Shown here in pieces: positions 394-13,105 of a DNA stretch of 64,000 nt. A program made the position numbers and the translations under genes. The DNA is from a phage, in NCBI GenBank assembly GCA_026683435.1, contig GCA_026683435.1_4866.1; one strand, written 5' to 3'. The stretch's first letter is position 1. Each line of letters starts with the position of its first letter. The notes beneath the pieces are model-generated. The model saw only the letters and a program-made list of their open reading frames with translations. It searched no databases and was not told the origin of the DNA.

Positions 394-428
394 AAAAAGA
401 AAGCCTCTTCCCCGTGGGGAAGAGGGCA
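394..428 (-). terminator. rho-independent terminator after gene 472..2649
   Basis: Stem cctcttcccc / ggggaagagg with GTG loop; T-run on minus strand (plus-strand aaaaagaaag precedes the stem). Confidence 0.65.
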
Positions 429-471
429 TGGATTATCTTTAGGCTTTAAACCCGTCAAGTTCCTCGTTAAA

Positions 472-2649
472 TTACGATAACGGTATCGTTGGCCGCACCC
501 ACGGTTTAGGGGCAGATTTGGTATACGGATTACATTCCATCATTTTACCGAGATACGCATCGTAATACACGAAGCGATCGACGTAGAACTTCTCCACCGG
601 TGCACTACTGGTAGCCGATTTCACCCGGTTGCGTTCCACAGCGAGGCTAATCGCCCCGGTAGGTGCGGGTTTTAGCGTGAACATCACCGCGCGGTTGTAA
701 CGCCAAGTGTCGTGCACAATATCAAACTCCGATACACAGTGTGCCATGATACCAAACAATGTGGTGGCTGGTAAGTTGGCTACAGCATCGCCGTATGGTG
801 TTCCCACCAAACCGCCGGGTATGTTTTGCTTTTGGAACAGCGTACCTGAAATAATCGTACCTAAGAACTCCACAACTACAGGCTTGGTTGGGTCGGTGAC
901 TTTATCTATCCCATCCGCACTGGCCAATCGGTTGGCATCTAAATCTGCGAGGTAGTCGAGGAACTCTTGGTACTCGTTGGTGACATTCGGTTTCACCGTT
1001 CCGACGGATACCCAGTTGACGATACTTTTATTCCCACCGACGGCTTCGCCTGCCATCCCAGGGCGAGTCCATGACATCCCGTCTTCACGACCGTAGACAT
1101 AGATCGGCGAGCCGGTAGCCGGGGTGTTCCATTGCTCGAACGCTGTATATCGTCCCGGCTGGCCCCAATCCCCACCCGGACCGCCATAGTAGCGACTCTG
1201 GTAGCCGGTAAATTGTGCGACGACTAACTGAGTAGCACCGCCTTTGTCACGGGACCCAGCTAAGCCGTTACGGTTATTGGTGCCGCTGGGCACCACCGCG
1301 CCTGTCCCGAGTGGCGCACCACCAGCTCCACCGATCTTGGTGGTGCTAAACGCATAGTAGTCGCCCCCACCCCCACCTCCGGCGATGGTGCCGTAGTTTT
1401 CGATGGTGACTTTGCCACGGAAGGCATCGGTAATGTGGATTGCGTCAGCTCCGTCTGCTGATGTGTTCGCAGGCAGAGAATAGACCATACCCGAACCACC
1501 ACGACCAAGAATGGTTCCCCGGTTAACGAAGTTCCAAACCACCTCGCCAATTTGCGGCAATTCGTCGATAACGAACGTCGGTTTCAGGTTGCTGTCGCGA
1601 TAAACGAAAGCCCCCGCATCTACGGTCACGTTAACAAACAAACGCCCGCACGCCGCATGGTTGGTCAACGTCGTGGCCCAGTAGCTGTCCGAAACTTGCG
1701 ACGTAGTTGTGTAGTTCAGGTTAAGGGTTTGCTCGTTATCTTGATAGCGTGCCACATTCAACGTGGCACTGCCCATGACTTTGTACGAACCCTCCACGGG
1801 TGCCAATTGCACTTGTCTTGGCCACTCGCCTGTCAAGTTCTCTACAGGAGCAATTTCGTTTACATCAAAAACACTCCGAATGCCGAGTGTCTCGATGGCC
1901 AGAGCATCGTGCAGGCTACCGGTGAAATCATCCGGGACGTATGTGGTTTTGCCTGCATATGTCTCGAGTTTGTTACGTGAAAAGAACACATACTTCGTTC
2001 CAAACATCCCGCTCCCCGGTCTAGCGGTCAAAGCTACGACGCTGTTATACGCAGAGGTTTGGCCTATATCCTCCGGGGACATAGGGGAGCTGACATCGAC
2101 TTTATCAAGATCCACGATCCGTTTGGTTGCATTAGAGTAGAAGTTAATCCACTGCTGTTTATTCGCAGCCTTTAGCGTGAGAATGATGTTGGTAACAGTG
2201 TAGACGGTGTTGATATCCACGTCACCGTTTATCACATCTAGCGTTTGGCTGCCGTACCAGATAAGACTTGTCTGTTTCGTCTGGAACGTGATGCGCGCAG
2301 CATTGTTTGTCCAAGTGATAGGCAGGTCTTCAAAGTCGTCAGTTAAAAAGGTAATCCCTAGTAGAGTGTCTAAATGCGGCAACAGTTCGTGGATGGACGC
2401 ACAAGTGGGAATGGCATCCAACTTAACCTTGGCGAAATAATCAGCAATATTTTGCTTCGTGACTTGGGCCGTAATTTGACCGTAATTTGAATACCCCGGA
2501 CCCCCTGTCAGTGTGACGTCTAGGGTTTTTTCGTCACGATGCGCCACGGACACCAGGCGTACGTTAGCGGGGTCTACTGCTTTGGCGACCGCGTTTTTAC
2601 GGTTGAGCGACCGAATCACGGTCGCCACTAAATCAGGAGTGTAGGACAT
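472..2649 (-). CDS. N-module paralog family, 725 aa, glycine-rich; putative tail-fibre/virion protein
   Basis: ORF track 725 aa. N-terminal blocks (TLTGGPGYSNYGQIT...NIADYF; LLGITFLTDDF) shared with array paralogs; Gly tracts; C-terminal ...SAPKPWVRP resembles the end of the 2664..3983 product. Confidence 0.6.
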   Translation of the reverse strand: MSYTPDLVATVIRSLNRKNAVAKAVDPANVRLVSVAHRDEKTLDVTLTGGPGYSNYGQITAQVTKQNIADYFAKVKLDAIPTCASIHELLPHLDTLLGITFLTDDFEDLPITWTNNAARITFQTKQTSLIWYGSQTLDVINGDVDINTVYTVTNIILTLKAANKQQWINFYSNATKRIVDLDKVDVSSPMSPEDIGQTSAYNSVVALTARPGSGMFGTKYVFFSRNKLETYAGKTTYVPDDFTGSLHDALAIETLGIRSVFDVNEIAPVENLTGEWPRQVQLAPVEGSYKVMGSATLNVARYQDNEQTLNLNYTTTSQVSDSYWATTLTNHAACGRLFVNVTVDAGAFVYRDSNLKPTFVIDELPQIGEVVWNFVNRGTILGRGGSGMVYSLPANTSADGADAIHITDAFRGKVTIENYGTIAGGGGGGDYYAFSTTKIGGAGGAPLGTGAVVPSGTNNRNGLAGSRDKGGATQLVVAQFTGYQSRYYGGPGGDWGQPGRYTAFEQWNTPATGSPIYVYGREDGMSWTRPGMAGEAVGGNKSIVNWVSVGTVKPNVTNEYQEFLDYLADLDANRLASADGIDKVTDPTKPVVVEFLGTIISGTLFQKQNIPGGLVGTPYGDAVANLPATTLFGIMAHCVSEFDIVHDTWRYNRAVMFTLKPAPTGAISLAVERNRVKSATSSAPVEKFYVDRFVYYDAYLGKMMECNPYTKSAPKPWVRPTIPLS

Positions 2650-2663
2650 GGTGACACCTTAGT

Positions 2664-3983
2664 CTATAGCGGTGGATACCAAGGGACCGGGGCGGTTTTG
2701 CTATATGGACTGTAGACCATATAGCCGCCTTTGCTTGGGTCGTAATAGATGAAATAGTTACAGTAATTCGAGTAGAGGCTCGTCATTTGTTTGGATTGGT
2801 ATCCGTTACGGTATAGTCCCTGGTAAGTAGTAGCTGATGTCGTGGTGGTGTAAGCAGTGTGGTACAGTACCCGACGCCGGTTAGCAATACTTTCTTGGAA
2901 CATCTCTTCGGTCGGAAACGCGTGTTGCATCAGCCGTCGAATACTCCCGGTACAGTATCGAGTGCCATACGGGGAACCCGTTAAATCATCCGCCGTTTCA
3001 GGCGATTCTGCCCGAGTCAACACGTACTCGTTTTGATACAACGTGACGCTCATCGAATTTGGGCTGGTTTCCCGGAAACTCATGTAACGCGCATAACGTT
3101 CGACGTCCTCTTCCTGCGCCAAATAGGCCACGTTATTTTTCGGACCAAAGTGCAAGAAGAACGGACGACGGAGATTACCCATATCCTCAGGTGGCGTCAA
3201 CTTCACGCAGTAATTGTACTCCCCACGCATATCAGGGTCTAAGCCTGGGTTGTTATTGCGTGTAGCGACATACCCATAGAGGTCATACGGGTTATCAGTA
3301 GCAGCATTACCGATAGTGAACGGGATGCCCGACCATGCCGACAGCGCCGCGATGAACTGGGTCATGTACGAGTTACTGTTTAGTCGCAGCGGGGTACCCA
3401 TTGGAATATTGATTATCTGTTGGGTGTACATGCTCCAGTCGAGTCGATAGACCGTGCTGTAAACATCCATGGGTTCCCAAGCCCCGGTTTCGGTGGTGTG
3501 GTACAAGTCGGCAAAGCTGGGCTCTTCACGAATAAAGCTAATAGGAATGTGACCCGTGAATGCGGGGTTATCCGATTTAATCGCCACCGTCCGATCGCCC
3601 GTTGCCACAGTGATCATTGCAAACTGGCTGTCGGGATACGTTAAATCGTCAGCAGTAAGCACCAACCCACAAGCTGCGGAAATCCGGTCGATGATGTCGC
3701 GGTAGGACGTCGCCCGATAAGGTACTTTAACCGGTACGCTGACGCCTTTAAAATACTGCGAAAGGTTTAAGCGGTCGTAGTAGATGTCCATCTTACCGCT
3801 GTAACCACCACCCTGTAATCCGTTTACCACTATACGGCTGTTGCGGCCATCGCGCAAGGCATTGGTTAAAGGACCTTGTAATAACGCCACGTTTGTTGCG
3901 TTGAGTGGTTTCTTGAGCTGCGGGTTATCACGATTAATCTGATCCCAAACCAGCTGCATGACAGGTTTGTTATAGTTGATCAT
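2664..3983 (-). CDS. N-module paralog family (A-type), 439 aa; putative tail-fibre/receptor-binding-like protein
   Basis: N-terminus MINYNKPVMQLVWDQINRDNP...GRNSRIVVNGLQGGGYSGKMDIYYDRLNLSQYF...CGLVLTADDL matches the family module; ATG at 3983. Confidence 0.6.
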   Translation of the reverse strand: MINYNKPVMQLVWDQINRDNPQLKKPLNATNVALLQGPLTNALRDGRNSRIVVNGLQGGGYSGKMDIYYDRLNLSQYFKGVSVPVKVPYRATSYRDIIDRISAACGLVLTADDLTYPDSQFAMITVATGDRTVAIKSDNPAFTGHIPISFIREEPSFADLYHTTETGAWEPMDVYSTVYRLDWSMYTQQIINIPMGTPLRLNSNSYMTQFIAALSAWSGIPFTIGNAATDNPYDLYGYVATRNNNPGLDPDMRGEYNYCVKLTPPEDMGNLRRPFFLHFGPKNNVAYLAQEEDVERYARYMSFRETSPNSMSVTLYQNEYVLTRAESPETADDLTGSPYGTRYCTGSIRRLMQHAFPTEEMFQESIANRRRVLYHTAYTTTTSATTYQGLYRNGYQSKQMTSLYSNYCNYFIYYDPSKGGYMVYSPYSKTAPVPWYPPL

Positions 3984-3993
3984 TGCAACGTCC

Positions 3994-4030
3994 TAAAAAA
4001 AGAAAATAGGCCCTTCGGGGCCTATTTTTA
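3994..4030. terminator. hairpin terminator (TTCG loop) upstream of gene 2664..3983, A/T runs on both sides
   Basis: aataggccc-ttcg-gggcctatt flanked by aaaaaaagaaa and ttttt. Confidence 0.6.
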
Positions 4031-4034
4031 GCTG

Positions 4035-4637
4035 TTATGGTGAAGTACGCTATCCCTTTAACTCCAGCTGATTCGACCTGCGTGTTGGGGATTATCCCGC
4101 TGAATGAGCCGACACAACAGCTCAAGTGCAGTGGATGAGTAAAACCCCATATTAGCTCCTGTTAGCTAAGAACCAATTCGATAACGTGGACTACCGACGC
4201 GCTACTGTTCGAAGAGATGTACGATGGTGAGTCTGGATAAGTGGCGCGATAATACCACGTGTTGGCGTTGCCAGCGATTTGATAGGCGCGTCTACCGACT
4301 GTACACTGCTATCAGATAACCAAACACCGTATAAATCACGTAGAGCTGGGAGAAGATCCCGCACGGTCTTGGCCGTTTGTGGTACGTAGACGCGCGGAGC
4401 TATTTAAAATAGATCTGATAATGTTAAACGGTCGTAATAAACCGTGCACTCCCCAGAGAAACCTTTACCGGGTTTACCTACCAACGTAATTACCGTGTTA
4501 CGACCATTCTTAGTGGTCTCGGCAGGAATACCCCTCACCCCAATCGAATCAGCGCTGATTCTTCCTGCGAGTTCAGGGTTATCCCTTACAACCTGTTGGC
4601 AGAGCAGTTCCAGTTCGGGTGCGCTATACAATCCCAT
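4035..4637 (-). pseudogene. decayed array copy: intact 77-codon N-module fragment (4404..4637) followed by non-coding remnant
   Basis: Fragment MGLYSAPELELLCQQVVRDNP...VYYDRLTLSDLF is about 74% identical by eye (57/77) to the N-terminus of the 6550..7968 product; no ORF in 3984..4403; 4130..4400 keeps residual nucleotide similarity to the 3' end of gene 4649..5548. Confidence 0.55.
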
Positions 4638-4648
4638 GAAGTCTCCTG

Positions 4649-5548
4649 TTAAGGCAGAACGAGTTCAAGTACCGCAATAGAACGTATTGTATCGGTTTCG
4701 TATCTACCGTTCGACGGCGACTCTGGGTAAGGTGGACGGCTGTACCACTGATTGTAAATGTCAGACATAGTCGCAAAGAGTGCAGATTGCGGGGCAGTAG
4801 TCGAATCGGTTGGACCGACCGGAAGGTCGTCAAAGCGCGGCAACTGCCCACTGTAGTTGTACAGGCGCGCGAAAGTGTTAAACCACTCACCGTCGAGATA
4901 CAGCTCGGTCTTACCGCTTCTAACGTTAGTCGTCCAGAATCTGTAGTCGAACAAATACGGCAAACGCACCACGTATTCGTAACCGTTCTTCGCCACCGTG
5001 CGGCGTTGGTTACGTGCAGTGGCCCAGCTCGGTACAAATCCATTGCCATCCTGGCCGTACATCAGCCCCTGGTTATAAATGAACTGCGGGCTAGCGTATA
5101 TTATCGCGTTATCGGACATAAACAGAATACGGTTTTTGTAAATGAACTTATGCCAGGCACCAACGGCGGAACTGAACATATTCACCACGAGGCTGTTCAG
5201 TTCCGTGTTAGTGAATAACTCTGTTGGCGTTACTGTTCCAAAGTATCCAGCGTGCCAGTCGCCGTATAACAGCTTCTGGGGGCCAGGCCCGGTGTCTAAA
5301 AAGAACCCTTGGGCGGTAGGGGTGTTGAAGACACGCTCACCGTCTTTAACCGCAGCTATCCAATAACGGTAAGTGGTGTTGTTTTCCACAGCGTTGTCTT
5401 CGTACGATGTAGCGTCACCCGGAAGGGTTGCCAGAGGCGTTCCCGGTGCATTAACATCAATGGTGGCGTTGCCCGGCGTCTTGCGATAGATTTCGATGCT
5501 ATCGAGCGCCTGTGGCTTCCGTTGTGCAAAGTTTAATGTAATAGGCAT
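4649..5548 (-). CDS. array paralog B'-type (beta-sandwich-like N-terminus + shared core domain)
   Basis: Track ORF 4649..5584 starts at TTG; first ATG at 5548 (MPITLNF...) 2 nt after the upstream stop. Motifs IEIYRK...TYRYWIAAVKD, GPGPQKLL...GYFGTV, C-terminal ELVLP shared with 7982..8905. Confidence 0.6.
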   Translation of the reverse strand: MPITLNFAQRKPQALDSIEIYRKTPGNATIDVNAPGTPLATLPGDATSYEDNAVENNTTYRYWIAAVKDGERVFNTPTAQGFFLDTGPGPQKLLYGDWHAGYFGTVTPTELFTNTELNSLVVNMFSSAVGAWHKFIYKNRILFMSDNAIIYASPQFIYNQGLMYGQDGNGFVPSWATARNQRRTVAKNGYEYVVRLPYLFDYRFWTTNVRSGKTELYLDGEWFNTFARLYNYSGQLPRFDDLPVGPTDSTTAPQSALFATMSDIYNQWYSRPPYPESPSNGRYETDTIRSIAVLELVLP

Positions 5549-5550
5549 GA

Positions 5551-6537
5551 TTAATCCTCGATAAGCTCGATTACTGGAATCCAAACACCGCCCGCGGTCG
5601 CACCAGCGACATGTTGTATACGCTGGAGGTTATCCACGGTATCAGTGGAACCCGCCGCCGTTCCGCGCGTCAGCCCCAACTTACGGTCTGGGTCAAACTC
5701 CTGACAATGCGCCCCGCGGCCACTCACCGCCGATCCACTTCCGAATATGCTGGTGTTCGACCACTTTATCAGGGACATCACTTTTTTCTTTTCTGGGAAC
5801 CAGCTACTTATCCCATAGATGAGTCGGTTGTATTCGCTATCGGCAGTATACGGTGACGCGTCATGGAGTTTACCGTCCCACTGTGCATCGAGTGTCATGA
5901 CCGGGCTTTCACTGTCGAGTGTTAAACCGCGCAGCAGGCGCATCCGATAGCGGTCACCCAACCACGTAAACTCCCCAGCCTGGTCAACGTCAGGTAAATC
6001 ACCATGACCGCCTTCCGGACCAGGTCCCGCCACACCGTACAGCAAACCCGCGTTATAAATCGCATCACGGCTATACAGCGTGTTGCCGTTCACACGAAGA
6101 CCACTAAACAGATACAGAATTTTACCGTCTAGCTGGAACTTCATCAAGCCCGGCTTAACAGTTGGGTCGTATCCAGAAAGGGCCACAAACCCTGGCGGAT
6201 AATCAGCCGCGCTAGGCAATTCACCGTACGCCACATACCCGTAATACGCAAAGCGGTCATCACCGTACTGTGGAGCCACGATGCCGATACCGCGACGGTT
6301 CTGAATTAGAATTGATTTCTGCGGACTGAACAGTGTCCGACTTCCCACTGTCACGGTGGTCATGTAGTAATACGTTGTCCCCAGTATCGCTGTTCGGTCA
6401 GTATACTCAGTTTCCCCGTTAGTGAACGTTGCCAGGGGTTCAGGTAATGCCGTACGCACCAGAGGTTTGGTGTCGCGGTACAGCTTCACGGTCGAAGCCC
6501 CAGGGTTATTGTTCGTCCAACGAATTGTAAAAGCCAT
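5551..6537 (-). CDS. array paralog B-type
   Basis: 328 aa; MAFTIRWTNNNPG...VKLYRD...TYYYMTTVT; core motifs AIYNAGLLYGVAGPGPEGGHG, RMRLLRG; paralog of 8915..9913. Confidence 0.6.
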   Translation of the reverse strand: MAFTIRWTNNNPGASTVKLYRDTKPLVRTALPEPLATFTNGETEYTDRTAILGTTYYYMTTVTVGSRTLFSPQKSILIQNRRGIGIVAPQYGDDRFAYYGYVAYGELPSAADYPPGFVALSGYDPTVKPGLMKFQLDGKILYLFSGLRVNGNTLYSRDAIYNAGLLYGVAGPGPEGGHGDLPDVDQAGEFTWLGDRYRMRLLRGLTLDSESPVMTLDAQWDGKLHDASPYTADSEYNRLIYGISSWFPEKKKVMSLIKWSNTSIFGSGSAVSGRGAHCQEFDPDRKLGLTRGTAAGSTDTVDNLQRIQHVAGATAGGVWIPVIELIED

Positions 6538-6549
6538 TGTCGTTACCTC

Positions 6550-7968
6550 TTATTGGAATCCATCCAACTCACCGTTAGTATCGCCCAGAGTAATTTTTGA
6601 AGGTTGGGCGATTTGGTCAGTCGTGAGAATAATCGGTCTAATCTTAACGCTAGCCATGCCTGTTACCGCGACGGAATATGCACGTTCATCATTGTCCGTC
6701 GTGGCAAGCAGAGGACGTGGATTCGCTGCAGCGGAGGTTTCCGTAATAGGCACCACACGAAGCGATTCGTTTTGGTCGATGTCTGTCAGAGTAACCACGG
6801 ACGGTGCCCATGTCAGTTCTGCACCTTCGTCAATCAACGGCACAGGTTCATTGGCAACATCAAACATCTCCAGGATTGGCCAAAAGCCAGAAGAGGTGTG
6901 GATGTATGTGTATGAACGATAGCTCCCACTGATAGACTGGTAATACGCTTGGTCGGCACCGAACTGGTGTCGTAACCACACGTAATCCAGGAAGTTAGCA
7001 TCAGTCGTGCTAAGAGTTCCCCATTCCCCATATACGTTCACCGACCCCAATTTGCTGGTCAGTGACAGGATAGAGGTGATTGACGGCGGTTTACTCCAAT
7101 CAGGCGCGGCGGCGTTCTCGGTGTAATACGGGATAGACATTCTGAAATAATGCGTTCCTTCATCATCCCGTTTTACCATGTATTTCAACTGTTCAACATC
7201 GACAGGTGTGTAAGTCGACTTCGGGCGAGGTCCTGCGTCTCCGGAATCAAATATTGCACCCTTGTTGTACAGGTCTGCCCAGGTAACGTTGCAAATCGCA
7301 CGGGTCGGAACAAACACTACCGCCCCATTCAGAAAGAATTTGAGCCACTTGATAGCGTAGCGGTTAGGCCAGTTGGTGCCGTTATAGAGGGCATACACCA
7401 TTTCATCAGATGTGAATAACTCTTCCGCGCTTACCAACCCAAAGAATCCGTATAACTCATTACCGGCCATTAATCCTTTTGGCCCAGGACCCGATTTCGG
7501 ATACATCGCAATCGGTTCGTAAACATAGGTCATCTTGCATGACCCGGTATAACACAAGGAGTTAGCGTGCGCCGTCAGAGTTACAGTTTCCGGCGTAGCG
7601 TATTTCATTAATGCAACGTTTGGACTGGTGATGTCACTCGCGGTTAAGTTCAACCCGTTCAATTCATTGAACGCCGGTAACGCTTCCGCATGGGTTTGTG
7701 CGCTACGTGGAATACTCACCATATTCGGGCCAGACTTGAACAGACTGGCCAGATTCAACCGGTCGTAATATACCGTTATTTCCCCAGCAAATCCTTTACC
7801 GGGTTTTCCTACCAACGTAATCTGTGTGTTTCGTCCGTTAACGTTTTTCGCAACAGGAACACCCCTGACCCCAATGGAGTCAGCGGTGATTTTTCCTGCT
7901 AAACCGGGATTGTCACGCACAATTTGTTGGCAGAGCAGTTCCATTGAAGGTTCTGTATACAACCCCAT
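6550..7968 (-). CDS. array paralog A-type (N-module + core domain), 472 aa
   Basis: N-module MGLYTEPSMELLCQQIVRDNP...GRNTQITLVGKPGKGFAGEITVYYDRLNLASLF; core GPGPKGLMAGNELYGFFG; C-terminal NGELDGFQ shared with 9925..11337. Confidence 0.6.
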   Translation of the reverse strand: MGLYTEPSMELLCQQIVRDNPGLAGKITADSIGVRGVPVAKNVNGRNTQITLVGKPGKGFAGEITVYYDRLNLASLFKSGPNMVSIPRSAQTHAEALPAFNELNGLNLTASDITSPNVALMKYATPETVTLTAHANSLCYTGSCKMTYVYEPIAMYPKSGPGPKGLMAGNELYGFFGLVSAEELFTSDEMVYALYNGTNWPNRYAIKWLKFFLNGAVVFVPTRAICNVTWADLYNKGAIFDSGDAGPRPKSTYTPVDVEQLKYMVKRDDEGTHYFRMSIPYYTENAAAPDWSKPPSITSILSLTSKLGSVNVYGEWGTLSTTDANFLDYVWLRHQFGADQAYYQSISGSYRSYTYIHTSSGFWPILEMFDVANEPVPLIDEGAELTWAPSVVTLTDIDQNESLRVVPITETSAAANPRPLLATTDNDERAYSVAVTGMASVKIRPIILTTDQIAQPSKITLGDTNGELDGFQ

Positions 7969-7981
7969 GGTATTTACTCCA

Positions 7982-8905
7982 TTACGGTAAGACTAATTCA
8001 AAAGCAAAGAACATCGTGGCCGAGTTCCCGACACCTGAGGTGTTACTAATCCCCATAGGCGCATAACCGTACGCATAAGCGAAAATGTTGTTGCTCCATA
8101 AAGGAGCTAATGCAGCAGCACCTGTTTCGTTAGGCTGGTAAGTTGAACCTTGCGCCGGTATTGAATCGATGGCACCAAGACCAATAGGCGGGAACTGTGA
8201 ACCGACAGGATACAAACGGCCCATTGTGTTTCGCCATTCACCGTTGTTGTAATCCTGTCCTGAGAGTGCCGCGTCGTACGGGACTGCGTAAGGTAACCGG
8301 ATACGGTACGTACGACCATCCTTCGTGACCTTACAATCTTGTTTGGTCGCCGTGGCCCCCAGCGGAACAATACTTCCGTCATCATCGGTCCCGTACATCA
8401 TGCCGTACTGATACGCCATTTGTACCGAGTTGCTTTTCGAATGCATCGTCGCTGGGAAGAAGACAATTCGCCCACGGAAAATAAACTTGTGCCATTCCTG
8501 AGGGTCGTAAGTAAACATGTTTCCCTGCTGCGCGGTTAACATGAGTTTTAACTCGGCAGTATTAAAGAACTCGGTATTAGATACCGTACCGAAATAGCCT
8601 GACGCCCAATCGCCACGCAAAATAGTTTGTGGCCCCGGTCCAGTGTCCGGATAGAACCCTTGCGTAATCGGATTGCCGATAAGTCGTTCATTATCTTTCA
8701 CAGCAGCTACCCAGTAACGATAAGTTGTATTCTTCGTCAGGGTATCGATATTATCTACGAACTCTACCGCGCTACCGGATAAGGTGGCGTGGGGTGTACC
8801 TGGGTTGTAAACGTCGATTGTTGCGTTCCATCCTTCCTTGCGGTAGATTTCAATCGCGGTAAGACCTTTGCTGGCTTGGGACGGCCAGCTTAACCGTATA
8901 GTCAT
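7982..8905 (-). CDS. array paralog B'-type
   Basis: 307 aa; IEIYRKEGWNATIDVYNPGTP...TYRYWVAAVKD...GPGPQTILRGDWASGYFGTV; C-terminal FELVLP. Confidence 0.6.
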   Translation of the reverse strand: MTIRLSWPSQASKGLTAIEIYRKEGWNATIDVYNPGTPHATLSGSAVEFVDNIDTLTKNTTYRYWVAAVKDNERLIGNPITQGFYPDTGPGPQTILRGDWASGYFGTVSNTEFFNTAELKLMLTAQQGNMFTYDPQEWHKFIFRGRIVFFPATMHSKSNSVQMAYQYGMMYGTDDDGSIVPLGATATKQDCKVTKDGRTYRIRLPYAVPYDAALSGQDYNNGEWRNTMGRLYPVGSQFPPIGLGAIDSIPAQGSTYQPNETGAAALAPLWSNNIFAYAYGYAPMGISNTSGVGNSATMFFAFELVLP

Positions 8906-8914
8906 GACTGCCCC

Positions 8915-9913
8915 TTACTCGACCAGTTCAAAGATAGGGTAGTAGCGCCCTTTCGTGGTGGGTGATAAATAGTTTATACGCTGAATCGTGGATACGGGTG
9001 TTCCACCGGCATTGTTAAAAATACCACGATGGAGCACACGGTCTTCCGCGGTATCGTGTTCCATACAGAGAACACCACCGCCGAAATACTGTGCCAAGGT
9101 TCCCAAAGTACCCTGTCCCAGATAAGTATAACCGATTGTTGCCCAGTTAGCCCAACGCTGTTTCTTCGGCACCTCGTTAACCATCGTGTAAAGTAAATCG
9201 TTATACTCACACGGGTTGGTTAGAGAAGCGATTTCATCATGGGTTTTCCCATTATAGTCAGCTACGAAAGGATACGCAGGAGGCTCGCTAGACGTCGTCA
9301 GGCCGCGAGGAAGACGCATAATGTACGTATCCCCTTTGTGGACTATCTTAGCGTCTTGTGGAGTGGCCGGTAGCGTTCCATGGCCGTTCTCTGGGCCAGC
9401 ATCGCCCGTACCATAGACTAAACCAGCTTGATAGAGGGAAGCCCAGTCCACAGGCGTATTCGGGAACTGCGACGTGTTAGATAGCATGTAATAGATCTTC
9501 CCGTTTCGGGTAAATTTATACAACGCCACACGATCGGTTAGTAGGTTAGGGAACATCGCCAAAAATGCAGGTGGCATTTGCGACGGAAGCCACTGTTCGT
9601 CGTAAGGAACCGCACCCATAAACCCTAAACGGTCGTCACCGTTTAGAATAGTCATTGGGCCTATCCCGCGTTTTACCTCAACAGTATATTTCTGGCTAGA
9701 CGATGCCACTGTTTTACCGTTGGCGGTTACCGTCAGAAGGTAATAATAGGTTGCGCCTGGTGTGGCGGTGGTATCACGCCATTCTGTCTCGCCATTTGAG
9801 AGCGTTGCAATCGGTTCAGGCAAAGCGCCTGGTGTGATATCTTTAACATCACGGTAGATTTTTACTACCGTAGGGATTACGTTTGGATTTTTCCAACGCA
9901 AAGTAAAAGACAT
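8915..9913 (-). CDS. array paralog B-type
   Basis: 332 aa; MSFTLRWKNPN...VKIYRD...TYYYLLTVT; LYQAGLVYGTGDAGPENGHG; C-terminal PIFELVE. Confidence 0.6.
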   Translation of the reverse strand: MSFTLRWKNPNVIPTVVKIYRDVKDITPGALPEPIATLSNGETEWRDTTATPGATYYYLLTVTANGKTVASSSQKYTVEVKRGIGPMTILNGDDRLGFMGAVPYDEQWLPSQMPPAFLAMFPNLLTDRVALYKFTRNGKIYYMLSNTSQFPNTPVDWASLYQAGLVYGTGDAGPENGHGTLPATPQDAKIVHKGDTYIMRLPRGLTTSSEPPAYPFVADYNGKTHDEIASLTNPCEYNDLLYTMVNEVPKKQRWANWATIGYTYLGQGTLGTLAQYFGGGVLCMEHDTAEDRVLHRGIFNNAGGTPVSTIQRINYLSPTTKGRYYPIFELVE

Positions 9914-9924
9914 GGATGATACCT

Positions 9925-11337
9925 CTACTTAAAGCCGTCCAGTTCACCGTTAAGAGACGTTAACGTTGTCTTGTCGGGGGGAGTATACATTTCAGCGGTA
10001 GCCGCAATAGGTTGGAAGTCGACTGTCTTCGGCAGCATTAATGCAGGCGGATGCAGTGCGAAACTGTTTTCTGAAGTAACAACTACCGGTTCGAAATCGG
10101 TAGTATCTGGATTACCGAGCACCAACGGCTTGAGACTAAACGTGTTTTCTGCGGACACGCTGCACGGTTGGAGGCTGTAATCTACCGCGCCGTGGATATC
10201 TTCTAAGCCCAAGGTAACCGTGGACTTATCCACCAACTCTAGCACCGGGAACCAGTAGTAGTTGCCTGCGCTCGATGATTTTTCTAAGTTTGTCCAACTG
10301 GCTCCAGACAACGTCGCCATGCGATGATAGGCGACGTTGGTCTTCAGTGTATCTTTCAATAAACAGAACAGCGTCCAGTAACTGTTAATCGGTTTGTCCC
10401 ACGTTCCATTATACAGAAAGTTGAACATCTCAAACTCACTACCTGCTAACTCAGCGGCAGTTGGGGTGCCGCTGACGTATGGGTCTTTCCCGGCACTAGG
10501 TAGACGAACACGGAAGTAAAACCTTTTGTTGTCTGCGCCTGTAAAGCTAATGATGCGTCCCTGGTTAACGGGCGTCGCCGCAGGGTATTTACCATTATCA
10601 TCTGTTCCGTAAACGAGTCCGTTTGTATATAATGTATTCCAGGAGATGGAGCTAGCGACAGGACTGATCGGGAGGTAAATAACCCTACCCTGGTAAAAGA
10701 ACTTGTACCAACCTTCGGCACCAGAATGTACCGGTGGTAACGCACCGGCCGATATAGTGGCATTAAGAAGTTGAGAGTGTGTAAACAACTCTGCAATTGT
10801 GGTTGTTCCGAAATAACCCGCAATAGTGTTACCTTGCAGCAACGTTTTAGGGCCAGGTCCAGAATCGGGGTAAATTGCACCGCTCGGGACGGTATAACGT
10901 ATCGTTAAGCTGCCTGTAAACGCAGGGCAATTACCTGAGATATTTAATTTCAGCGTCTGCGGCGAAGCGCTCGGTTTAGGTAGACTTGCGTCAGGTAACT
11001 GCAAATCAGAAGCAACTAATGTAAGCCCCAATGCGTCGTTTATTGCAGGTAGCGCGTCTCGTACCGTTAAGACTGTATCTTTGATAGCCACAGTCGGCAC
11101 AAAATTAAATAAAGTGGCCAGGTTAATCCGGTCGTAGTACACGGTAACATTACCTTGTACACCTGTCCCTGGATACCCGGTGAAAACAGCTTTGGTGTTA
11201 CGTTGGTTTAACGTAACTGAAGTTGGGCCGCTGGTTAAAGCAGCGATAGCCGGCGTCAGCTTAACAACTAAATCAGGGTTATCCCGATTGACTTGGTCGT
11301 ATACAAGCAGTGCCGACTCCTTCGAGTAAAATAGCAT
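9925..11337 (-). CDS. array paralog A-type, 470 aa
   Basis: ATG at 11337; N-module ...NQRNTKAVFTGYPGTGVQGNVTVYYDRINLATLF; core DSGPGPKTLLQGNTIAGYFG, LYTNGLVYGTDDNG; C-terminal NGELDGFK. Confidence 0.6.
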   Translation of the reverse strand: MLFYSKESALLVYDQVNRDNPDLVVKLTPAIAALTSGPTSVTLNQRNTKAVFTGYPGTGVQGNVTVYYDRINLATLFNFVPTVAIKDTVLTVRDALPAINDALGLTLVASDLQLPDASLPKPSASPQTLKLNISGNCPAFTGSLTIRYTVPSGAIYPDSGPGPKTLLQGNTIAGYFGTTTIAELFTHSQLLNATISAGALPPVHSGAEGWYKFFYQGRVIYLPISPVASSISWNTLYTNGLVYGTDDNGKYPAATPVNQGRIISFTGADNKRFYFRVRLPSAGKDPYVSGTPTAAELAGSEFEMFNFLYNGTWDKPINSYWTLFCLLKDTLKTNVAYHRMATLSGASWTNLEKSSSAGNYYWFPVLELVDKSTVTLGLEDIHGAVDYSLQPCSVSAENTFSLKPLVLGNPDTTDFEPVVVTSENSFALHPPALMLPKTVDFQPIAATAEMYTPPDKTTLTSLNGELDGFK

Positions 11338-11352
11338 AGGGACTCCGCATCG

Positions 11353-11382
11353 CCAAAAGAGGGGGGGCTCCGAAGAGCCCCT
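11353..11382 (-). terminator. hairpin terminator after gene 11387..12214
   Basis: ggggctc-cgaa-gagcccc, G7 run in 5' arm; T-rich on minus strand. Confidence 0.55.
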
Positions 11383-11386
11383 ACAC

Positions 11387-12214
11387 TTAGCTGTTATAGT
11401 GGTAGTACGCCACGCCTTTCACGCCTTCCTCATCGATACCCGTTTGGACAACCACGCGGTCGTACGATTTGTTAGCGAACTGAGCGGTGGATGTCGGCAC
11501 ATCCTGAACGGTGTTACTGTTCAGTGGCCCCGCGTAGTTCGGAATACCCAGGTCATCCAACACCTTACGCAAACCAGCCCACTGCGGTAGGCCAGAAGCA
11601 TCTACTGTCAGTAGGTTTTTATACGCGGTAAAGTCAATACCGTACGTCAACAAATCAATACACTTCTTACCGAGAGACGGTGAAATAGGCTCTTGAATCG
11701 CATTCAAGACATCCGATTTCACCGAAGTGTCTAGTACCGGTAAACCACGGTTATAACGCAACGTCGCAGAACCGATATAAGCCGGAGATGTCGATAGCGC
11801 TACGATGTTCTGTGTATTGGTGTAATTTGGGGTATTGGGACCCGCCAGTGGGAGGTTATAGATATCGATTGCAGAGAAGTTTACTCCGTAAGTATCCAAG
11901 AGCACCGAAAAGGCTGAGTGGAGGTTGGGAGCGTCAAACGTGACGAACTGCGCCTGGACAGAAGGACCCCACGGCAATAACCGCGCTAAGTTCACACGGT
12001 CGTAGTAAACGGTGATTGCGTCTCGAAATCCAGAACCCTGAATACCGCGCAAGCGTGCCGACGTATTGCGGTTGTTGGAAGCTGCATTAACGGGAACCTG
12101 TGTCACTTTCTCCACGTAGCAGTTTGCCGGCGACGCTTTAATAGGTAGGTTTGGGTTATCCCGGTTAATGAGGTCAAAGACCAACTCGTTTGACGGCTTA
12201 GCATAGTTGATCAT
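11387..12214 (-). CDS. N-module paralog, 275 aa, C-terminal YYHYNS (C-type end motif)
   Basis: Track start 12217 is TTG; ATG at 12214, 4 nt after upstream stop. MINYAKPSNELVFDLINRDNP...NNRNTSARLRGIQGSGFRDAITVYYDRVNLARLL. Confidence 0.6.
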   Translation of the reverse strand: MINYAKPSNELVFDLINRDNPNLPIKASPANCYVEKVTQVPVNAASNNRNTSARLRGIQGSGFRDAITVYYDRVNLARLLPWGPSVQAQFVTFDAPNLHSAFSVLLDTYGVNFSAIDIYNLPLAGPNTPNYTNTQNIVALSTSPAYIGSATLRYNRGLPVLDTSVKSDVLNAIQEPISPSLGKKCIDLLTYGIDFTAYKNLLTVDASGLPQWAGLRKVLDDLGIPNYAGPLNSNTVQDVPTSTAQFANKSYDRVVVQTGIDEEGVKGVAYYHYNS

Positions 12215-12217
12215 CAA

Positions 12218-13105
12218 TTATACCTCGCTTGGATCGTCCAGATCGTTGAACTGGAGATACAACGTTCCGACGATGGTGGTACAGGTAACAGGCAGTTTCA
12301 ACACCAGCGCATACTTGTACTTCGCGTTTGTCGGCATTGCAACAGGGTCATTCAGACCAACGCTGATAACCTCCGCGCCCGCCAAACCGTAGGAAGCGGA
12401 AGTGGTCGCTACCCATGCAGTACCCGTGATATCTTTCAGCAGGTTAACCATATCCGTCAACGGCTGTCCAGACAGAATACCCGGCTTGTATGCCAGCAGA
12501 GCATCTCGGTACTTAGTGAAGTTGTACGGGTAGGAATAGACCTCTGCAATGACCGCAGTAACATTTTCGGAACCCATCTGACCGTTCGGGTATTTCAGAC
12601 CGGTCAGGACGTTAGTAGTGACCGCAGAGACTAACGACTCATCGCCTTTCACGACTTTAAATGTCGCCTGTCCAACCCAACCGATAGACTCTGGATGTGC
12701 AACAACACGCACAGTACCTTCGGTCTTATCACCGTTCCATTCGATATCTGCGTCCTGCAGGTCAGCTTCTTCCAGAACAAAACCGTAACGTTGGTTCAGT
12801 CCAGGAATGGCCGCATACAAGGTTTCGTTGGATGGGCCGATCGCCAACGTGTCACCAATCAACACTAACAAGTCTTCGACTTTCATGCGGTTGTAGAAGA
12901 CATTTTTCTTACCCGACCAGGTAGAGCCCGTTACCCCATCTGCCGTAATTTTAATTTGCGTGTTACGGTTAGTCAGCGTTTCCTTTTCCGTACCACGGAT
13001 GTCCTTTGGCGTGGACCAGATGATGTCAGTCATCTTAACAGCAAGCGAGTTCTGTGCGTTCACTGCTGCCAACAGGACGTCTTTAGAAGGTTGATAAATA
13101 GCCAT
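12218..13105 (-). CDS. N-module paralog C-type, 295 aa
   Basis: MAIYQPSKD...TNRNTQIKITADGVTGSTWSGKKNVFYNRMKVEDLL...RYGFVLEEADL; C-terminal LYLQFNDLDDPSEV. Confidence 0.6.
   Translation of the reverse strand: MAIYQPSKDVLLAAVNAQNSLAVKMTDIIWSTPKDIRGTEKETLTNRNTQIKITADGVTGSTWSGKKNVFYNRMKVEDLLVLIGDTLAIGPSNETLYAAIPGLNQRYGFVLEEADLQDADIEWNGDKTEGTVRVVAHPESIGWVGQATFKVVKGDESLVSAVTTNVLTGLKYPNGQMGSENVTAVIAEVYSYPYNFTKYRDALLAYKPGILSGQPLTDMVNLLKDITGTAWVATTSASYGLAGAEVISVGLNDPVAMPTNAKYKYALVLKLPVTCTTIVGTLYLQFNDLDDPSEV

Follow-up and report, generated by a model that had tools for sequence, protein, structure and literature searches.

A deletion scar in a tandem array of putative fibre genes of an SPN3US-like jumbo phage

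A tandem array of DUF7941-family genes

The region studied here, positions 4035–4637, lies on the minus strand of a 64,000-nt phage contig (GCA_026683435.1_4866.1), the whole of which is referred to as the window. Positions 2600–8000 of the window are matched by 38 phage records, mostly at 95–99% identity; by sequence similarity, the source is an SPN3US-like jumbo Salmonella phage of the genus Seoulvirus. The minus-strand genes of the region form a tandem array of A-B-B' cassettes, with the following genes, remnants and signals.

9925–11337 (A), 8915–9913 (B) and 7982–8905 (B'), minus strand: cassette 1, orthologues of SPN3US gp145–147
6550–7968 (A, here A2), 5551–6537 (B, B2) and 4649–5548 (B', B'2), minus strand: cassette 2, orthologues of gp148–150
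4638–4648, minus strand: spacer after the B'2 stop, with the ribosome-binding site AGGAG of the head remnant as read from the sequence
4257–4637, minus strand: head remnant, nt 1–381 (127 codons) of the A gene of cassette 3 (gp151 orthologue)
4404–4637, minus strand: 77-codon open reading frame (ORF), the N-terminal half of the DUF7941 N-terminal domain
4401–4403, minus strand: premature stop TAA, which is AAA (Lys78) in the intact gp151 of SPN3US and phage 1252
4257–4272, minus strand: deletion junction, a 16-nt homeology patch at which gp151 and gp153 are 13/16 identical
4162–4256, minus strand: tail remnant, the last 31 codons and stop of the cassette-3 B' gene (gp153 orthologue)
4080–4150, minus strand: head remnant of the cassette-4 A gene (A4), its first 71 nt, 93% identical to nt 1–71 of A4 in phage JN03
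4150–4058, minus strand: 30-codon mini-ORF that starts in the A4 head, with its own ribosome-binding site at 4151–4161
4035–4079, minus strand: 3'-end remnant (about 45 nt) of a gene encoding a DUF7941 C-terminal domain (...AGVKGIAYF...)
3994–4028, minus strand: intrinsic terminator closing the array, a hairpin (4028–4003) with an 11-pair stem followed by a T-run
2664–3983 and 472–2649, minus strand: gp154 and gp155 orthologues, adjoining the studied region on the terminator side

An initial annotation of this DNA, made from its letters, had recognized the 77-codon minus-strand ORF and reported no ORF between it and a terminator at about 4010. Both statements hold: no frame of 60 amino acids or more is present in that interval, and the predicted hairpin is stable and lies upstream of the gp154 orthologue. 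A search of Rfam at a permissive threshold returned one match only, at chance level.

The DUF7941 module scores above the Pfam threshold in the A-type proteins (105.5 bits for A2), in gp154 and gp155 and in short upstream paralogues. The B and B' proteins are without it and consist of an FN3 domain and a domain that lacks a detected structural match. In the B'2 model (pLDDT 92), the FN3 domain is followed by a domain of about 210 residues; fold searches with this model matched its N-terminal FN3 domain only and detected no structural match for the C-terminal domain, to which the central domain of the A2 model is homologous. The label 'glycosyl hydrolase' carried by some phage records is unsupported, as there is no structural match for the B'2 C-terminal domain. 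Searches of PDB sequences with A2 and B'2 returned nothing useful. The modelled N-terminal domain of A2 matches an outer peripheral baseplate chain of phiKZ (9xqd_0; E = 6e-5, 146 aligned columns), and the domain comprises residues 1–150 in both.

DUF7941 proteins have been proposed to form head-to-tail flexible filaments on the peripheral baseplate for host recognition, and the same preprint, on phage Goslar, proposes a host-recognition 'fibre cloud' of these proteins on chimalliviruses (bioRxiv 10.64898/2026.04.21.720040). The predicted fold of A2, with its match to the phiKZ outer baseplate, agrees with a baseplate placement of the DUF7941 N-terminal domain. In SPN3US proteomics, the same genes encode virion proteins of 'paralog family B', which were assigned to the head following their detection in tailless particles (PMC5105663, PMC5694885). 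This head placement (gp138–154) conflicts with the baseplate-fibre model, which draws on the phiKZ structure, the Goslar preprint and the A2 fold match. The array genes encode DUF7941 proteins, which are putative baseplate fibres, and the cassettes may act in host recognition. The gp155 orthologue (725 amino acids) combines a DUF7941 N-terminal module with a glycine-rich domain similar to the GP38 tail-fibre adhesin (PF05268; E = 6e-18), which supports a candidate receptor-binding role for at least that member of the array.

Comparison with DUF7941 proteins elsewhere (Goslar gp22/gp23 and phiKZ gp126/gp127) shows shared and distinct features. The first 150 residues of A2 superpose on the phiKZ outer-baseplate chain and, as in some Goslar members, the N-terminal module of the array proteins precedes other domains. 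The A-B-B' cassette organization is absent from the description in the Goslar work, and the scar described below holds only half of the N-terminal domain. [quoted passage not shown]

Remnants of the third and fourth cassettes

A third A-B-B' cassette (gp151-gp152-gp153) is present and intact between gp150 and gp154 in SPN3US and phage 1252, and the flanking genes gp148–150, gp154 and gp155 are collinear between SPN3US and the window. Window positions 2600–4273 align to 3462–5135 of the SPN3US locus (L002) and positions 4257–6720 align to 8001–10467, with a 17-nt overlap of the two BLAST segments across the junction. Relative to SPN3US, 2,882 bp are absent from the window, and comparison with phage 1252 gives the same figure; the missing sequence comprises gp151 beyond nt 381, gp152 in its entirety and the greater part of gp153. 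The initial annotation had postulated a deletion or illegitimate recombination that fused an A-type head to a B'-type tail, and had pointed to related phages as the place to look for an intact third cassette; both the fusion and the cassette are found.

The head remnant is 98–99% identical to gp151 nt 1–381 (98% for SPN3US), and the 11-nt spacer before it is identical to that before the intact gp151 in SPN3US and phage 1252. Its read-through translation equals gp151 residues 1–127 except for K78* and V83I. Against phage 1252 gp151, 5 of the 381 nt differ, of which 4 are synonymous changes and 1 is the nonsense change.

The tail remnant lies in a different reading frame from the head. Its translation (4256–4165) is WYYRATYPDSPSYISSNSSASVVHVIELVLS*, identical to the B' protein of phage SPLA5c at 31 of 31 positions and to SPN3US gp153 at 24 of 31, and its DNA is identical to the SPLA5c B' allele over the compared stretch. 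The tail thus derives from an SPLA5c-like allele of gp153 rather than from the SPN3US allele. Decay of the B' tail can be ruled out: its differences from SPN3US gp153 are allelic, given the identity to the SPLA5c allele. Patchy similarity of 4130–4400 to the 3' end of the 4649–5548 gene had been noted at the outset, and it applies to part of that interval: 4256–4162 is B'-like, and 4257–4400 is A-type. Within the window, the similarity does not emerge from nucleotide alignment to the 3' end of 4649–5548, the best local alignment being 27 nt long (z = 2.0; 19 of 300 shuffles score as high); at the protein level, the tail translation matches the B'2 C terminus with z = 7.4, a score reached by 0 of 500 shuffles.

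To place the junction, we compared the window with the A gene of phage 1252 and with the B' gene of SPLA5c. The patch pair reads GGCAACGCCAACACGT versus GACAACGCCACCCCGT, and the crossover was resolved within CGT (4259–4257). An assembly artefact is ruled out by the presence of the same junction in isolate JN03 and in dozens of independent assemblies. An exact search of IMG/VR with the 30-nt junction returned no match, and in the literature we found neither the scar nor a cassette-number polymorphism described.

The scar is therefore a direct orthologue of gp151-gp153, with the start of gp151 as its head and the end of gp153 as its tail, from which it differs in being out of frame and stopped at codon 78. 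Both gene ends have homologues that close relatives carry intact at this position, and coding is broken by the frame shift at the junction and by the TAA at codon 78, as expected of a pseudogene. Taken as a whole, positions 4035–4637 are very probably a non-functional deletion scar within a tandem array of DUF7941-family virion-fibre genes of an SPN3US-like jumbo phage. The further claim that the fusion had then decayed is barely supported: one nonsense mutation has occurred, set against a head that differs at 5 of 381 nt and a tail that is the SPLA5c allele at 31 of 31 residues.

Under the mechanism that we propose, an ancestor would have carried a third A-B-B' cassette at this position, with orthologues of SPN3US gp151, gp152 and gp153. 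The 2,882 bp would have been lost in a single event of short-homology (illegitimate) recombination or replication slippage between gp151 nt 366–381 and a near-identical patch some 95 nt short of the gp153 end, leaving the head of gp151 fused out of frame to the tail of gp153. The fusion ORF, at first 148 codons long, would later have been shortened to 77 by an AAA-to-TAA change. Either slippage or a recombinase pathway could have produced the deletion; a UvsX-like recombinase and a T4-like polymerase are both encoded by SPN3US.

The region also holds a second head fragment, absent from the initial annotation, which includes the 30-codon mini-ORF. Cassette 4 is intact in phage JN03, with the A4 gene at its head, and the A4-head remnant is also present in the gp153-gp154 spacer of SPN3US. 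The A4-head scar is older than the cassette-3 scar. Just before the terminator, a GTCGAA microhomology links the 4035–4079 remnant to the A4 head, and SPN3US has the same joint. We assigned this remnant by comparison with a 127-amino-acid product at locus L009, a 91-amino-acid product in SPLA5c and the C terminus of a 276-amino-acid paralogue at 11387–12217. The last array member shows graded erosion, from 127 amino acids in L009 through 91 in SPLA5c and 30 in SPN3US, SPLA3 and the window to a few codons in EC001, and every step is bounded by short repeats.

The 77-codon open reading frame

The product of the 77-codon ORF is identical to SPN3US gp151 at 77 of 77 positions and to A2 at 57 of 77, exactly the count that had been made by eye (about 74%). 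At the DNA level, the ORF and A2 are 75% identical over 213 nt, the only long direct repeat in the array. The product matches Pfam DUF7941 (PF25613) with 51.7 bits (cut-off, 27) over profile positions 1–79 of 276. It is thus about half of an N-terminal globular domain of about 150 residues, and not the intact N-module that it was first taken for.

The stop falls just after a conserved YYDRLxL motif. A frameshift as its origin is ruled out, as it is an in-frame nonsense substitution (AAA to TAA), beyond which the gp151 frame runs unbroken for 49 more codons, to 4257. The abrupt end remarked on in the initial annotation is thus a real stop but not a module boundary. A 148-amino-acid database variant, P0016, has the same out-of-frame fusion C terminus and keeps K78. 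The order of events is read from this protein sequence, which indicates that the deletion probably preceded the nonsense change, because P0016 has the fusion C terminus yet retains the lysine.

The exact 77-amino-acid product is found on at least 35 public contigs from independent sources (the index lists 61 blocks of the collection), many of which belong to Salmonella enterica genome assemblies. The identical scar is present in isolate JN03, the only INPHARED isolate that spans the junction. A strong ribosome-binding site and the intact frame of the ORF are kept in dozens of genomes. Because the scar sits at the 3' end of an operon and this site is intact, the ORF may be transcribed and even translated, and a small expressed product is conceivable.

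One alternative is that the ORF is a maintained small gene whose product modulates fibre assembly, by capping filaments or by competing for docking sites, and that the nonsense change was selected to remove the out-of-frame tail. The exact ORF occurs in four array architectures with its ribosome-binding site unchanged, and the N-terminal domain is the part through which head-to-tail docking of DUF7941 proteins has been proposed (bioRxiv 10.64898/2026.04.21.720040). The fragment, however, spans only the first 79 of the 276 profile positions, half of the domain, and the same head has been eroded to 30 or a few codons in relatives with no apparent consequence.

Sequence variation among 12 scar-bearing genomes also weighs against a maintained gene. 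Variable sites number 5 of 248 in the ORF and spacer (2.0%), 1 of 144 in the A-type part after the stop (0.7%) and 1 of 95 in the B' tail (1.1%), or 2 of 239 in the post-stop scar as a whole, compared with 79 of 987 in the intact B2 (8.0%) and 76 of 900 in the intact B'2 (8.4%). The scar varies less than its intact neighbours and conservation of the ORF does not exceed that of the non-coding remainder, although all carriers are 97–99% identical overall, which leaves conservation tests with little power and the genomes too similar for dN/dS. Rare ORF variants change invariant or nearly invariant positions of the family (L12H, L12F, T51R, G54C and D69V) or shift the frame (forms of 57, 63 and 76 amino acids); these come from automated assemblies and are possibly sequencing errors. 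The ORF is retained in a single group of 97–99% identical phages, and not across diverged relatives as a conserved functional small ORF would be. We consider a maintained small gene to be highly improbable. On the preferred reading, that of a non-functional scar, absence of function of the ORF is probable rather than proven, given that the variants may have arisen in assembly and that the carriers differ too little for dN/dS.

The low variability among the 12 carriers shows that the cassette-3 scar is a young allele of single origin. For annotation, the 77-amino-acid 'hypothetical protein' in many Salmonella assemblies should be read as a gene fragment.

Array architectures among related phages

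Presence or absence of cassette 3 does not by itself give a direction of change, and the short form could in principle be ancestral, with cassette 3 gained by insertion in SPN3US-type phages. The window, however, retains 381 nt from gp151 and 95 nt from gp153, both 98–100% identical to intact alleles; these halves meet out of frame, a premature stop is present, and no intact gene reads across 4257/4256. Matching gene halves on both sides of an insert cannot arise from the insertion itself, and we therefore reject this polarity as scarcely credible.

We mapped reference modules onto 20 loci and recovered at least nine architectures.

Type I, SPN3US and phage 1252: cassettes 1, 2 and 3, cassette-4 head scar, gp154, gp155
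Type II, the window: cassettes 1 and 2, cassette-3 scar, cassette-4 head scar, gp154, gp155
Type III, JN03 and nine other contigs (L011–L018 and L020): cassettes 1 and 2, cassette-3 scar, cassette 4, endolysin
Type IV, L019: as type III, with cassette 4 reduced to A4[1–340]::B'4[849–897]
Type V, L007 and L008: cassette 1, hybrid A2/A3 head scar, cassette 4
Type VI, SPLA3: cassettes 1 and 2, hybrid cassette-3/cassette-4 head, gp154, gp155
Type VII, EC001: cassettes 1 and 2, 19-nt head, gp154, gp155
Type VIII, SPLA5c: cassette 1, A2, B2/B3 hybrid, B'3, longer cassette-4 head scar
Type IX, L009: cassettes 1 and 2, in-frame 127-amino-acid fusion, gp154, gp155

The type IV locus (L019 9488–9862; GCA_010876105.1) consists of A4 nt 1–340 followed directly by the final 49 nt of B'4; the two meet at a 14-nt near-identical patch, GTTGACTGCA(G/A)ACG. 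As judged from this junction, it is an independent A-head::B'-tail deletion of the same shape as the cassette-3 scar. In the type V loci, the sequence switches from A2-type to scar-type at ORF nt ~26–44 and ~93–101, and cassette 2 is removed in each. Because the switch points differ, unequal crossing-over between the A2 head and the scar has occurred twice independently. It follows from these crossovers that the scar serves as a homology block for further loss; its conserved 5' head has been the block at which cassette 2 was deleted, and the scar itself would have spread by recombination among closely related phages.

The array had been suggested to be actively gaining and losing cassettes. 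Loss is borne out by the nine architectures and the independent deletions; gain is not, as none was seen across the nine architectures (20 loci) and loss or replacement accounts for every polymorphism. Protein identity among the four cassettes is only 29–49%, from which we conclude that the duplications are old; the A2 and A3 heads are 74% identical, and A2 and A3 as a whole 43%. Between the A4 head and the endolysin gene, cassette 4 (A4-B4-B'4) and gp154/gp155 are apparently mutually exclusive in a comparison of JN03 (L003), L011–L018 and L020 with window 472–3983, which suggests a whole-cassette replacement.

Two routes of change are evident from the junction sequences. The first consists of short-homology deletions at 6–16-nt repeats, to which the cassette-3 scar, the L019 scar, the cassette-4 head erosion series and a 78-nt indel in A2 belong; the second is unequal homologous recombination between conserved heads. 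In T4 and other recombination-proficient lytic phages, deletions occur between short direct repeats, the classic rII deletions being an example. The array deletions resemble these in having end points in 6–16-nt direct or near-direct repeats, in the loss of kilobases and in the lack of site specificity; unlike the T4 rII laboratory mutants, they are natural, population-level alleles. Mosaic receptor-binding clusters with conserved N-terminal anchor modules are known from T-even gp37/gp38 and from multi-fibre phages. As in these clusters, the array has conserved 5' heads beside divergent bodies and recombination within the heads; unlike them, it shows loss and a single cassette-for-gene replacement (cassette 4 versus gp154/gp155), and receptor-binding tips were not seen to be exchanged.

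A dedicated cassette-number switch (site-specific inversion or excision, or a diversity-generating retroelement) in place of accidental deletion might be suspected, as A-head::B'-tail deletions recur in two different cassettes, but we regard it as exceedingly unlikely: the junctions differ in position and sequence (CAACGCCA..CGT, GTTGACTGCAxACG, GTCGAA and AGCGxAC), the head-to-head crossovers lie at different points, and an inverted-repeat search of 400–12300 yielded one chance-level 24-nt pair and nothing meaningful, so that neither a shared recombination site at the junctions nor inverted repeats in 400–12300 point to programmed switching.

Accidental deletion and recombination between heads could be taken a step further. 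The A-type heads, those of the scars included, might be maintained as 'recombination handles' by which whole fibre cassettes are dropped, swapped or re-acquired during co-infection, cassette 4 against gp154/gp155 being an example, with the 77-amino-acid fragment also expressed and tuning the assembly of DUF7941 fibres. We hold this combined proposal to be unlikely.

The type of event is well known, and the scar itself is an ordinary pseudogene scar that marks a fast-evolving, putative host-recognition locus and a hotspot. Its interest lies in the setting: the number of complete A-B-B' cassettes varies from one to three among Seoulvirus genomes that are nearly identical, and cassette 4 or gp154/gp155 is carried in addition. 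Phage pairs that are almost isogenic can be drawn from this natural deletion series to test how each cassette affects host range and adsorption: types I and II differ in the presence of cassette 3, types III and IV in that of cassette 4, and types III and V in that of cassette 2. Such tests are relevant to candidates for Salmonella phage therapy, for example, the SPFM and SPLA phages.

Further variation was observed within the array. In SPLA5c (L006 7309–8383), B2 nt 1–570 are joined to B3 nt 513–999, and this sequence stands for B2, B'2 and A3; the hybrid is annotated as two ORFs and is probably a broken recombination product. The window A2 has 472 amino acids, compared with 498 in SPN3US gp148, owing to the absence of a 78-nt in-frame segment (window 6713–6720). 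The indel is flanked in SPN3US by an 8-nt direct repeat, CCACGTCC, seen by eye; a tandem and direct-repeat search at the indel with a seed of 9 found none. The C-terminal tail, predicted to be disordered, thereby loses one of its two PRPL-containing units. The two A2 alleles both circulate, and the 472-amino-acid form is also present in SPLA5c and L009.

Two observations concern the public records. In Salmonella phage SPFM5 (L021; LR535903.1) and other SPFM records, the region consists of 60-nt blocks in reversed order and aligns as 40 BLAST pieces. The block order resembles FASTA lines reversed without complementing and gives scrambled 'proteins', such as SPFM9_00135; this scrambling is a database artefact that corrupts comparisons. 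Many Seoulvirus contigs of about 240 kb (for example, L012, L014 and L019) lie in assemblies of Salmonella enterica isolates, where they are annotated as Salmonella proteins, which suggests that lytic Seoulvirus jumbo phages often accompany or contaminate sequenced cultures.
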